This document shows positions 18-63,650 of a stretch of DNA of 64,000 bases, one piece after another. Below the pieces are notes generated by a model. That model searched no databases and was not told the origin of the DNA. It saw nothing but the letters and a program-made list of their open reading frames with translations. The translations under genes were made by a program, and so were the position numbers. The stretch is from Chrysomallon squamiferum (Eukaryota; Animalia; Mollusca), in the NCBI GenBank assembly GCA_012295275.1, contig CM022677.1, forward strand, positions 20,708,001-20,772,000. The letters run 5' to 3'. Every line of letters starts with the position of its first letter. Positions within the stretch are counted from its first letter, which is position 1.

Positions 18-209
18 TAATACAAGCTATTCCAGAGAAACACTCTCTAGTGACAACGTCTTTCTCGGAACCTTCGCACAATTTGCCGCCATATCTTGGA
101 GTCGGATTTGCGCACTTTCTGTATCTGACATTCATACGATAACCCGTCCCGCACGTTGCAGAGCAGTCGTAGTCTGCAAACTTAACCCATGGTGACCATC
201 GTCCATCCA
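18..209 (-). CDS. A1 TSP1 exon (DGRWSPW...CSATCGTGYR...CANPTPRYGGKLC)
   Basis: 192 nt; acceptor tttctag, donor gtacgt; paralog at 13968-14159. Confidence 0.92.
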
Positions 210-3200
210 CTAGAAATTAGTGATGATGATATATAGTTATAACAATACAACATGTAACATACACATCTAACATACAGAGTACTTATCTATATATATTAGT
301 ATTTTTGTTGTTCTAGTAGTAGTAGTAGTTGTTGTTGTTCTTATTTCTTCTTTTTTTTCTTTTTGTTACTTAATTAACTGTTGGTTTGCTGGTGAATTAG
401 TTAATTACGATTAACCACCTAATTAACTGCACTTGAAACGCTTATATATGATTTAAAGTTTAACTTCTGCCTTTATAATTTATTACAGATGACTCAAACC
501 AAATAAAATAATAATGGGTAAACTTGTTTTAATTTTTATGCAATTCATTCGTACAAATCAGCCGATGTAAAATGTCTTACCAGGTTTGGAAACATTGCCT
601 ACTATATCTCCTTCATTTGTTGTTATTGATGAAAAAAAAAAAAAAAAAAAAAAAAAAAATAAATAAATAAATAAAGTAAATTAAAATGAATTAAAATAAA
701 TAAGCAAATAAATTATAATAAACCTAATGATGATGACGATTATGATGTTGATATGTTAATTATGTTATTGCTGATGTTGTTATTAATAAAAAAAAACATG
801 ATTCAGAATGACATATGGTTAAGTAGATACGGTGAGAAGCACATATCCTCAGTCAGATAATATTCATATACTGGCAAATAGACAAAAAGAAAGGCAGAGA
901 AATAGACATAGATAGATAGATAGATAGATAGATAGATAGATAGATAGATAGATAGATAGATAGATAATGAGATACACATACAGACGGTCAGACAGACAGA
1001 CAGGTAGCTACATTATACGAAAAGAGAGGTAGATAGAGGGACAGACAGCTAAAAGAACAGATGCGATCATTACTTTGTCTAGGTCGAAGACAATATTTTG
1101 TATAACTTTTCTTCAGTGAAGTATCATATACATCTACATTCGTATTGTACAGAAGTATATTTAAACATATATATATATATATATATATGCGGACTTCAAA
1201 TATACCATAGGAAAAAGGTTACGGGTCGACGACGTGCATCTGGTATTTGACAGATACTATGACTACATATATATGTTTAAATACACTTCTATACAATACG
1301 AGTAAGAAAAGTGAAGACACTGAACACTTACCAGGACAGTGCACGCCCCTGTCACACGACATCAAAGTATGTTTAATTCTGGGACCACGACAACGTCGTT
1401 GTGCGTCACTCCCTGGACATTGTCGAGCCAGAGTTACAGTTTTCACACCAACTGAACAAGTAACACCACACGGTGATGAGGAACTTTCAACCCATGCGCC
1501 CCATTCAGGATCACCTAGATCATCATTATTGTTATAAATATGTTTGAACGACTTAATTTATTATCTTACTTATTGACTTTGTTAGTTAATTAAATCATTA
1601 TTTAGACAGTAAGCTTTTTAATTGTAATTAATCACGTAAAAATATTGTTATTATTACGTAATATATTACTACAGAGGGTCTGATTTCAGATTATGGATAG
1701 AAAAATACCTATGCTGACATGAAAACAATGAAATATATTTTCTAACATTAAAACGAAGGCATCGTACCAGGGCATGCGCCTTCAGTACAGGGCTCTATCG
1801 CATGTCTCGTTTTACGACCAACGCAGTCTTTTCCTCCGTGTTGTGGTCGAGGGTTCGTACATGTTCGAAAGTTGTCGTGTTCTGTTTTACCATAACCACA
1901 AGTTACAGAGCAGTCTGTACTGTTCGTAATAAGCCATCCACTCCATCCACCATTCACTACATATAAATATATATATAGATATGAAACAGAAAAAAAAGAC
2001 GTAGATGCTCATTTATTCCCACTTTTAAAATTTCGTTTTCTCTTGTTTTTTTTTTGCTTCCACTTAAATGAAGAACATTTTAAAACTATGCAAAAGGATA
2101 CCAGCATTAACACATTTCTTTCGCTAAAAATAACAAAATAATTATACAATGATCATAATTTTTGGTTATTACTTTGTTCATTTCTTCGGTTATTTCTGCA
2201 ATCCCCAACAATCTGTTTTGTGTTACCTTTCAGGGTCTTCTTAACATTGGCACCAGTGAGACAGATTATTTTCTTATCTAAATTTCTTACTTTCGTCCCG
2301 TTTAACCGCACATTAGAGCACATTTTAGTATCGTGTATTTTATTTTTTATATCCGATTAAATTAATGAGTGAATAATGTGATGAATGAATAAAAGGATTA
2401 AATTATTAAAAGTTAATCGTCTTCTGAATTATAATTTCAGCAACAGTTTGAATATGCTGGTTTCTGTTAACAGTGTACAAACATTTCATTTTAACTGATT
2501 TTAATATGACACACGTATTTATTTCATGTAAATGTTACCTCTGTTGGTTGCAGGGGATCTTGAAGTACCTGCATAAATAATTAAATAAATAAATAAACAA
2601 ACAAATACAAAACAAACAAACAAACAAACAAATTAACTGAAATCTTTGACTTTTGTCTGATATACCTCATATCGTTACTTAATTATCTGTTAGTTTGTTT
2701 GTTTGTTTCTTTCTTTCATTATTTATTTACTTACATACTTCCTTATTTATTTATTCATTTATTATTAAAATATTATTTCTTCTTCTTCTTCTTCTTCTTC
2801 TTCTTCTTCTTCTTCTTAATATTATTATTATTACTATGTTCATTATTAGTTTCTATTGATATTCACCGTTATATGGTCGTTTTTTTAATTTGTTTTATTT
2901 TATTTTATTTATATTTTAATTTTAATTTTAATTTAATTAATTTATTTCGTTTTATTTTATTCTTATCTATGTATTATAAAATTCTTTATTTTTATTCCAC
3001 TTAGTAAATAGCTACGATACTCTATTAACTAAATATGTTAACATCAAAGTGCAAATTAGTAATGCTGGAAATCGCTGGTTCTTCATTCGTGATTAATTAA
3101 AAAAAAGTCGATTAACTTAAGTATCAAACATAATAATAATAATTAAATAAATAATAATAATAATAATAATAATAATAATAACAATAATAATAATATACAC

Positions 3201-61800: not shown

Positions 61801-63650
61801 TGCAAGGATGATCTTGTACTAACATGAATGCATTAAAAAATGCACAGTTTAGTTAATTAGTTTATTGCTTTAATGGCTTTATTTTATAAATCGATAAATA
61901 CTTTCTTGCACACATACATAATTTATTTATTTATTTATTTATTTATTTATTCAGCCACTCAGAGACCGCGTACAAATGAAACAGGTAAAATAAAATAAAA
62001 ATAAAAATAAGTTTACTGATTATTTTTTGGCATGTCAACACAGCATTACATACAAATTTCCGAAGGTAAACTCAAATTTTTGAAAAAAAAAAACAATCGA
62101 AAAGACAAACATTCTTATTCACTTTTCTACTCTTTCGTCCGTTTGTTCATCACTCACTCACTCATTCTTTTCAATAATACATTTAGCCGAATCTCGTTTA
62201 CCCTCTAACACCAATGTCTCACTCTTTCCTTCACACTATAAAGAAAGGTGGAAATACATATTTTTATGCAGGTTTAGTATTCTGAAATCTGGAAAAAAGA
62301 ATAAAACTTAAATAATATATATATATATAGGGGGTGTCCCAGAAGTCACGCACCATGAAGATTTTTATTTAGATACATATGAATAAAAAATTTATTAATA
62401 ATAATCATAACAAATGCTCAAATTGCTTGCCCTCTGCATTGATACATACTTCAATTCTCTTTATAAAACTGTTTTTTACTCTGTTGAGGGTTTCGCTACT
62501 AATTTATGTGTATCTAAATAAAAATCTTCATGGTGCGTGACTTCTGGGACACCCTGTATATATATATATATATATATATATATATATATATATATATATA
62601 TATATATATATATATATATATATATATATATATATATATATATATTATTATTATTATTTTTTTTAATTTCCAGATTTCAGAATATATGCATATAATGTAT
62701 TATTTTATGTTATTTATTTATTTCTGAAGTGGATGTTGGTTGGTCTACATGGCATATTGGACTTAGTACAGACTGTACAGTCACATGTGGTTTTGGTCAT
62801 ACGGAAGACTACTTCTATCGAAAATGTGACAACCCACCACCACAAAACGGAGGACAGAGTTGCTATGGACCTTTAATAAAACACAGGGTACTATCGTGTG
62901 TGGAGCGAGAATGTCCTAGTACGGTTCATCAACTTTAATCTTATAAAACATTTTTTTTTTTCAGAGGTCAAAAACAGTATGTATGGTCATTCATCCAAAT
63001 GAACTAACGATGATGGCAATATCTTATTGTTTCGTTCAGATATTCTTTGTATGTAGTCCGAAGTAAAACCTTCTTATTTGTTTATATATATATATATATA
63101 TATATTGCAGTCAATGTAACCATCTGAGATAAGAAAAATAATAAAAGAAAAACAAATATGACTAAAATAATGAAAGACCTAGAGTAATGCATTCTTATCC
63201 GCCTAAATATATATTTATATATGAGCGTAAATGTAGCTGCATATCTACGTACACACGCAAACATAGATAACAGTAAATAAATAGATATGCAGATAAAGAT
63301 ATTTAGATTGATATTTATATATATAAATTCATAAATCGATAGGTTGGTAAGTAGAAATAGAAATAGACAGAGATAGTCATGTAATTGTGTAGACATGTAA
63401 ATAGATAGACGCATCAATCGACAAAGAAATGTAACTAATGGAAGTAAAAATGATAATAATTTTCTAGATGATCCTGGGTGGACCACGTGGAAGCAGAGAA
63501 GGGCGTCGTTGTGCAGTGTGACGTGTGGAGTTGGTGTGAGCACTGTGACTCTGACTCGAAAGTGTCCTTACATTTACAGAGGAGTGTGCCAAGGACCTTT
63601 CTGGAGATATGATATCAAAACATGTGACACCAACGTTACCTGTCCTGCTG
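54410..63650 (+). CDS. Gene B2: LRR-TSP1 protein, open reading frame, 3' end outside the window
   Basis: LRR 54410-55868; TSP1 56122-56280, 56667-56933, 57370-57546, 58045-58224, 59503-59694, 60360-60536, 62730-62918, 63468-63650; micro-exons 58711-58725, 61047-61076, 61421-61450, 61955-61984. All phase 1 and stop-free. Confidence 0.87.
62330..62556 (-). mobile_element. 227-bp Tc1/mariner-derived non-autonomous element (MITE) in a TA tract
   Basis: Perfect ~45-bp TIRs (GGGTGTCCCAGAAGTCACGCACCATGAAGATTTTTATTTAGATAC); right end CACCCTG-TA; interior minus strand reads ETLNRVKNSFIKRIEVCINAEGKQFEHLL*, like a Tc1/mariner transposase C-terminus; absent in B1 (~35610). Confidence 0.9.

Follow-up and report, generated by a model that had tools for sequence, protein, structure and literature searches.

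What do the disconnected leucine-rich repeat (LRR) and thrombospondin type 1 (TSP1) reading frames in one stretch of the Chrysomallon squamiferum genome encode? We analysed 64,000 nucleotides (nt) of assembly GCA_012295275.1 (contig CM022677.1, positions 20,708,001 to 20,772,000, forward strand), referred to here as the window, placing exon ends by splice context and then translating the exons. The results showed two paralogous genes, A and B. The domain order in A is an LRR head, four TSP1 domains, a transmembrane (TM) segment and a tail with an NPxF motif; B has the same order with nine TSP1 domains. These domain counts agree with those of an initial annotation made from the letters of this stretch. 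We consider the predicted LRR-TSP1-TM-tail protein architecture very probable. Such a receptor architecture, with a traceable ancestor and in a fast-turnover paired cluster, is apparently undescribed.

Domain order and exon structure of genes A and B

Gene A runs in the order LRR exon, 162-nt TSP1 exon, 30-nt micro-exons, TSP1 exons of 189 and 183 nt, a micro-exon, a TSP1 exon of 192 nt, a further micro-exon, a 79-nt TM exon and the tail exon. Although their LRRs are 41% identical, A and B have exon order, sizes and phases in common through the TM and tail exons. The initial annotation had proposed sizes of 189, 183 and 192 nt for the last three TSP1 exons of both genes, a TM exon of phase 1 to 2 and a common tail motif; the sizes were reproduced in the exon tables, and the TM phase and tail motif in A2 and B1. 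Its further claim that the fragments splice in consistent phase held for the exon phases, but reading A2 and B1 through all exons meets a 1-nt frameshift in each. With all candidate micro-exons the predicted proteins have ~856 (A) and ~1288 (B) residues, and without them 782 and 1123. Signal peptides were judged by visual inspection only.

WxxW and six cysteines are present in all 27 TSP1-type exons of the window, CxxS/TC in 25 and the exact CSVTCG in 8, and all have phase 1-1 ends. A passage of PMC7663992 gives WxxW, six cysteines, a CSVTCG-like motif and an RxR/RxC strand as TSP1 hallmarks. A strict TSP1 pattern had 25 matches in the window as it stands and none once the sequence was reversed or complemented, and a profile of 16 window exons retrieved human thrombospondin-1 (E 3e-13). 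The Pfam TSP_1 cut-off was reached by just 3 of 13 scanned exons. For the divergent TSP1 exon 1, the predicted fold has three strands (pLDDT 90), and a fold search ranked TSR structures first, none at E 0.001 or better. The TSP1 domains, and likewise the B LRR, carry a net basic charge. Pfam rows of low significance, Tox-SGS (E 0.07-0.1) among them, were put down to chance.

The best matches of A TSP1 exons 1-4 are B exons 1, 7, 8 and 9 (45-52%). In size, micro-exon position and sequence (~40%), the 7-8-9 block has a counterpart in B exons 3-4-5; duplication of a three-exon block is therefore the likely way in which B grew. B TSP1 exon 2, which has a 28-residue extension, is 99-100% identical across three copies (29132-29398, 56667-56933 and 8901-9165), whereas differences of 3-18% separate the copies in the other exons; this may reflect gene conversion or strong constraint.

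Each complete model has a single strongly hydrophobic 19-residue window, and the stop codon follows 34 or 41 residues past it. FGxxNPxF was found in both tails (NPDF in A2, NPAF in B1), with FG at equal spacing before the motif. In integrin traffic, Numb, Dab2 and SNX17 are bound by motifs of the NPxY/NPxF type (PMC4342575). As TIR, kinase and death domains are missing from the models, any output would have to pass through the tail motif alone. No Pfam match to Ig or FN3 was obtained among the open reading frames scanned, and the domain-sized exons between LRR and TM are all TSP1.

The micro-exons are predictions from splice signals, chosen partly for open phase-1 frames; those of the stalk are Ser/Thr-rich and acidic. 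The earlier claim of common micro-exon positions is borne out by matching places in the A and B models. Conservation of the micro-exons above their flanks was not demonstrated, as they differ between copies at 7 of 195 positions, against 62 of 987 in the flanks. In both genes they often have a purine-rich acceptor, an A-rich run ending in ATGAAG with no pyrimidine tract beside the AG, which is kept across copies (sites 31406, 33920, 21201, 19469, 17738, 17162, 14560, 3678, 610, 58711 and 61047). A 1.7-kb intron block with one micro-exon (17222-21921) is triplicate in A2 and single in A1, so stalk length would differ between A copies. The last introns of B1 hold a 1.5-kb direct duplication (88%; 42858-44311 and 45228-46713), each duplicate being followed by AG microsatellites and candidate micro-exons of 24-33 nt.

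Self-comparison of the window, which has 29% G+C and many microsatellites, resolved three tandem head-to-head units, each formed from the paralogous genes A and B. They comprise six gene positions: A1 and the B0 remnant in unit 1, A2 and B1 in unit 2, and the A3 remnant and B2 in unit 3. Head-to-head orientation and tandem amplification had been recognised in the initial annotation, which described one pair rather than six positions. Blocks are ~80-94% identical between units among the blocks listed, and large deletions differ from unit to unit, a pattern that would fit true tandem duplicates better than uncollapsed alleles. The start codons of A2 and B1 are 2795 nt apart, and the predicted first-exon donors of A and B 923 nt. 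Together with a kept 5' untranslated region (UTR) exon and the kept TGACGTAA element, these donors place the predicted first exons less than 1 kb apart, as at a bidirectional promoter. This layout suggests co-expression of A and B. The positions of all features are collected in Table 1.

Table 1. Positions of gene copies, exons and promoter features in the window
Feature	Position	Strand	Remarks
A1 LRR exon	5711..7148	-	1438 nt, open, phase-1 end; ATG 7148; signal peptide-like start, LRRNT, LRRs, LRRCT
A1 TSP1 exon 1	5059..5220	-	162 nt; exon table
A1 Ser/Thr/Pro-rich micro-exons	3678-3649, 2568-2539	-	30 nt each; predicted only
A1 TSP1 exons 2-4	1956-1768, 1514-1332, 209-18	-	gene exits left end of window
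A1 micro-exon amid TSP1 exons 2-4	610-581	-	predicted
B0 remnant	8777..10337	+	just TSP1 exon 2 (8901-9165, 2-nt deletion) and exon 3 (9602-9778); no LRR exon, no first TSP1 exon
A2, whole gene	24276 to 12228	-	unit 2
A2 LRR exon	22838..24276	-	1439 nt; frameshift near 24011 relative to A1
A2 TSP1 exon 1	22206..22367	-	162 nt; exon table
A2 mucin-like micro-exons	16589..21201	-	five, 30 nt each; predicted; three within the tandemly repeated 1.7-kb block
A2 TSP1 exons 2-4	15895-15707, 15437-15255, 14159-13968	-	189/183/192 nt; exon table
A2 micro-exons around last TSP1 exons	14560-14531, 13265-13224	-	predicted
A2 TM exon	12787..12865	-	79 nt, phase 1 to 2; predicted; maximum 19-residue hydropathy 3.0
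A2 cytoplasmic tail exon	12228..12330	-	FGLSNPDF motif and stop; exon table
Shared promoter region	24937..26268		predicted only
A 5' UTR micro-exon	24951-24937	-	15 nt; predicted; kept in all three units
First-exon donor, A	after 25345	-	strong; predicted
First-exon donor, B	after 26268	+	strong; predicted
TGACGTAA element	26229		kept upstream of B1 and B2; predicted
B1, whole gene	27071-49661	+	unit 2
B1 LRR exon	27071..28529	+	1459 nt, open, 486 codons + 1 nt; exon table
B1 TSP1 exon 1	28719..28876	+	158 nt (B2: 159); frameshift near 28726; skipped in one RNA contig
B1 TSP1 exons 2-6	29132-29398, 29780-29956, 30535-30714, 32201-32392, 33191-33367	+	exon table
B1 micro-exon within TSP1 2-6 stretch	31406-31420	+	predicted
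B1 micro-exons ahead of TSP1 exon 7	from 33920	+	four; predicted
B1 TSP1 exons 7-9	35710-35898, 36490-36672, 37545-37736	+	189/183/192 nt; exon table
B1 micro-exon amid TSP1 exons 7-9	37058-37069	+	predicted
B1 membrane-proximal stalk	38636..47301	+	11 candidate micro-exons of 24-45 nt; predicted only
B1 TM exon	47530..47602	+	73 nt, phase 1 to 2; predicted; maximum 19-residue hydropathy 2.7
B1 cytoplasmic tail exon	49538..49661	+	FGVKNPAF motif and stop; exon table
A3 remnant	51731..52208	-	first ~95 codons of an A-type LRR exon, ATG near 52011, homology then stops; self-comparison
B2 LRR exon	54410..55868	+	open; ATG 54410; AlphaFold2 LRR solenoid, mean pLDDT 91.6
B2 TSP1 exons 1-8 and four micro-exons	56122..63650	+	all open, phase 1-1; gene exits right end of window

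Within a B1 intron, a stop-free frame of 150 codons (41828-42277, minus strand) has no Pfam match; we take it to resemble a C-terminal fragment of a transposon integrase. A B2 intron carries an insertion missing from B1 (62330-62560), whose ends resemble inverted repeats by eye and which is possibly a small DNA transposon. A tRNA search of the window found none.

Relatives of the LRR head and probable origin of the added exons

The LRR heads of the window belong to an unnamed LRR-only family of molluscs and brachiopods. LRRNT, repeat register, internal cysteines and LRRCT are the same across the whole domain (35-42% to the nearest). A search over 1.84 billion representatives listed 150 proteins, mostly giant generic LRR proteins, from which we chose 18 with one or two near-full-length matches. 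The closest named relative, XP_041362700.1 (P0037), which is presumably a Gigantopelta aegis record, is 35-40% identical to the window LRRs and was the one match of a near-length search with A1. Further named relatives come from Haliotis (XP_071106136-138 and XP_046362261/283/296), Aplysia (XP_005100877), Patella, Babylonia, Potamilus, Mya and Lingula, under inconsistent automatic names (LINGO-like, chaoptin, IGFALS, lumican). A profile built from 15 relatives, with no window rows, scored the window LRRs at 357-438 bits over positions 7-490 and generic LRR proteins at 154 bits or less; an octopus match (P0029, 145 bits) was rejected as a member. The Haliotis members (P0054, P0094 and P0101 clusters) have adjacent accession numbers and lie on contigs of equal length, which suggests tandem arrays.

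The predicted B2 fold is a solenoid in which 16 repeat strands were counted. Its fold neighbours were LINGO-1 (top Foldseek row, TM-score 0.45), LGR4 and Toll-like receptors (TLRs), all with modest TM-scores, and an ESM Atlas search returned generic LRR clusters.

Unlike the window genes, the relatives end 70-120 residues past the LRRCT CxC in a hydrophobic tail resembling a glycosylphosphatidylinositol (GPI) signal, with neither TSP1 nor a cytoplasmic tail. A GPI-signal-like hydrophobic C-terminal stretch was found in 17 of 21 relative rows (hydropathy only, 1.8 or more). The window LRR exon instead ends in a phase-1 donor and is spliced to a TSP1 exon; read-through meets a stop in A1, A2 and B2. 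None of 292 fetched proteins matched the window TSP1 profile at E 1 or better. Searches for longer relatives returned generic LRR proteins without PF00090, both in 36 matches (854-2435 aa) and in the 120 listed of the 184 matches of a second search (1018-2905 aa); such negatives are weak evidence. A metagenome scan with B2 alone gave no match, and one with a small alignment gave 5 loci (25-36% identity), none with a TSP1-like motif.

In a midpoint-rooted tree built without A2, A1, B1 and B2 formed one clade (100/99), which lay inside a group of seven with P0037, P0042, P0193 and P0122 (96/98). Since A and B form a single clade, the TSP1-TM-tail part was likely gained once, before the A/B split, at the phase-1 intron after LRRCT. 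An LRR-only, probably GPI-anchored ancestor would have acquired a phase-1 cassette of TSP1 exons, TM exon and tail, for which a single origin fits well. A and B would then have diverged, B duplicating its three-exon block, and the pair would have been amplified as a unit while copies died. P0122, an unnamed ENA gene call, runs into repeat-like sequence just past the last LRRCT cysteine and ends there, as would result from reading through a phase-1 donor placed as in the window LRR exons; it may be another LRR-TSP1 gene, in another organism.

Transcript evidence, frameshifts and selection

Four read runs (X1-X4) from two studies were used, of which three hold 30-39% of the sampled words and X4 next to none. 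They were aligned to 26900-44800 only, inside B1 and short of its TM exon and tail, with gene A outside; 15 of 96 RNA joints and 16 X1/X2 pieces were listed. One X1 contig joins 28519 to 29133, and of the 11 intervening letters 10 complete the LRR exon and one opens TSP1 exon 2. Because these letters match exactly, we read the joint as splicing, in a variant copy, from the predicted LRR donor to the acceptor of TSP1 exon 2. An LRR exon unjoined to TSP1 had been named in the initial annotation as the observation that would overturn it; in this contig an exact splice connects the LRR exon with a TSP1 exon. Among the 16 listed pieces, four have both their ends no more than 5 nt from those of TSP1 exons 3, 5, 7 and 9, their records continuing, and one begins at the predicted LRR acceptor. 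Pieces from X3, whose kind is not on record, cross exon-intron borders. A 12-letter loose end behind 29393 in X1 looks like exon 2 joined to the start of a TSP1 exon that does not follow exon 2 in the window, a weak hint of alternative TSP1 exon orders.

The A2 LRR exon is 1 nt longer than that of A1, with the break near 24011, and the first TSP1 exon of B1 is 1 nt shorter than that of B2, near 28726, the frame being kept if this exon is skipped. The parts of A1 and B2 inside the window are open throughout. Behind 28726 an X3 contig reads one base more (depth 288 of 430); in-frame copies at the B1 site therefore exist, and the B1 lesion may reflect an error or a minority form. With two remnants and two frameshifted copies at its six positions, the cluster fits birth-and-death evolution.

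Pairwise counts of nonsynonymous (pN) and synonymous (pS) differences gave pN/pS 0.54 for A1 versus A2 (P 0.0002), even across domains, and 0.48 for the LRR of B1 versus B2 (P 0.0007). These results indicate purifying selection on A and on the B LRR. For the pooled TSP1 exons of B1 versus B2 the ratio was 1.38 (pN 0.082, pS 0.059), which differs from that of the B LRR (P 0.003) and of A TSP1 (P 0.009). Exon 7 is the extreme (pN 0.17, pS 0.036, P 0.036 uncorrected among 8 exons). Diversifying selection is one possible cause of this divergence.

Several observations weigh against a full-length, recognition-driven receptor pair. The sole RNA junction comes from one contig of a variant copy in which TSP1 exon 1 is skipped, and its depth is 0 in X2, X3 and X4. 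No join through any micro-exon was present among the 15 listed joints, and the join from TSP1 to TM is predicted, the RNA stretch having ended at 44800 and gene A having no read coverage. Three of the 16 X1/X2 pieces are intronic, which means that some DNA or repeat sequence is present in the libraries. A2 and B1, the sole complete copies, are both frameshifted in the assembly. The pN of B TSP1 is not significantly above pS (pooled P 0.12), and local relaxation or gene conversion could have produced the divergence. A diversifying concave face of the LRR was rejected, since differences between copies are not enriched on it relative to the rest (B 12/80 vs 25/220, A 10/80 vs 28/220), unlike at a diversifying ligand site.

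A proposed capture-and-uptake role, and the competing explanations

No description of an LRR-TSP1-TM family was found in the literature searched, most subscription journals lying outside its scope. The words "thrombospondin" and "TSP" do not occur in the main text of a survey of extracellular LRR (eLRR) proteins of human, mouse, fly and worm (PMC2235866), and the main texts of PMC7895826 and PMC7736800 mention neither LRR nor thrombospondin. The earlier view that no named family has the order LRR-(TSP1)n-TM thus stands, but the LRR and TSP1 combination is not wholly unrecorded, as the Elysia chlorotica transcript c117363_g1_i1 is entered as 'LRR_8 * 3 + TSP1 * 5' in a supplement of PMC7663992. 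This gastropod transcript, compared by domain label only, combines LRR and TSP1 as the window genes do, and its entry lists no TM.

Toll-like receptors share with the window genes a single membrane pass and an LRR ectodomain with LRRNT and LRRCT caps, whereas the window genes have a TSP1 array and no TIR domain in their short tails. LINGO, LRIG, FLRT and GPIb-alpha, the last with a mucin stalk, also hold an LRR head on a spacer above one TM, but the window spacer is TSP1 and not the Ig or FN3 of LINGO, LRIG and FLRT. UNC5, semaphorin-5, BAI/ADGRB, THSD7A, apicomplexan TRAP and properdin have tandem TSP1 with WxxW, six cysteines and CxxS/TC; the window models differ from them in the LRR head and in having no Ig, Sema/PSI, GAIN/7TM, vWA, ZU5 or death domain. 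NPxY/F endocytic receptors share the motif in a short tail. By its predicted domains, the protein can be likened to a non-signalling endocytic eLRR receptor outside the TLR, LINGO/LRIG/FLRT, UNC5, semaphorin-5 and BAI families.

Our tentative reading is that A and B are expressed together, evolve by birth and death, and act as capture-and-uptake receptors that do not signal; the capture-and-uptake role itself we hold at somewhat below an even chance. A single promoter region might drive transcription of both genes. The rod of TSP1 domains and the mucin-like stalk may hold the LRR clear of the membrane and offer further contacts to glycans or proteins. The receptor might bind through LRR and TSP1 and then be internalised or recycled, its NPxF tail recruiting PTB/FERM adaptors of the Numb/Dab2/SNX17 kind, so that uptake would take the place of signalling through a TIR or kinase domain. 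The ligands may be microbial or other non-self surfaces, which copy turnover and fast TSP1 change would favour; a recognition role, as proposed in the initial annotation, would fit the birth-and-death pattern and the fast TSP1 divergence. A bolder version is unlikely. In it, A and B would work only as a two-chain receptor, amplified as a unit, and diversifying selection would act on TSP1 arrays that exon skipping and exchange between copies reshuffle; one mollusc lineage would have turned a GPI-anchored LRR gene into a variable, TIR-less capture system directed at microbes or symbionts.

Alternatively, the receptors might mediate adhesion or recognition between cells or gametes of the animal itself, similar to chaoptin, connectin or FLRT-UNC5, and the NPxF tail would then have a part in cytoskeletal linkage or surface levels. 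Gamete-recognition proteins likewise evolve fast, and TSP1 arrays are known in UNC5, semaphorin-5 and BAI1. Rapid gain and loss of copies with remnants, as in the window, is less usual in wiring molecules, and no orthologue of the same layout was found in the protein collections searched. The ancestral layout is that of GPI-type LRR adhesion proteins, and Connectin is entered as LRR-GPI in a listing of PMC2235866 (Dolan et al.). On balance we regard this explanation as rather unlikely.

It is improbable that A and B are structural surface or matrix-anchoring glycoproteins of mucus, cuticle, shell or scale formation with no recognition role. The Ser/Thr-rich, acidic micro-exon stalks and the net basic TSP1 domains and B LRR would suit such proteins, but the NPxF tail is kept in both paralogues and the acceleration in the B TSP1 exons is domain-specific. 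We give little credence to a cluster of mostly decaying duplicates, or of uncollapsed haplotypes with long-read indel errors, that has little current function. Four of six positions are broken in the assembly and X3 carries the extra base at 28726; against this, copies are ~9-15% apart with different large deletions, pN is below pS in A and the B LRR, exons are covered by RNA contigs, and A1 and B2 are open as far as seen.

That the full chain is not made, the product being secreted or LRR-only or the TM and tail lying on shorter transcripts, is very improbable: the full-length relatives are all LRR-only, the join from TSP1 to TM lies beyond the RNA stretch, and read-through of the LRR donor ends hydrophobic in B1 alone, but the LRR-to-TSP1 junction is present in RNA, matching TM and tail exons follow the last TSP1 in both paralogues, and read-through meets a stop after at most 2 codons in A1 and A2 and yields no hydrophobic end in B2. 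The hydrophobic B1 read-through was judged to be chance.

Automatic annotation would miss genes such as A and B, as most of their TSP1 exons fall below the Pfam cut-off and their relatives are misleadingly named. For now they represent one more lineage-specific LRR architecture. TSP1 proteins have been proposed as recognition factors in animal-symbiont systems, according to a passage of PMC7663992. Fast-changing receptor clusters are candidates for invertebrate non-self recognition. The window would show a receptor family caught in the making, in which phase-1 exon shuffling equipped an LRR-only ancestor with a TSP1 rod, a membrane pass and a trafficking tail, and the genes then expanded as a linked pair.

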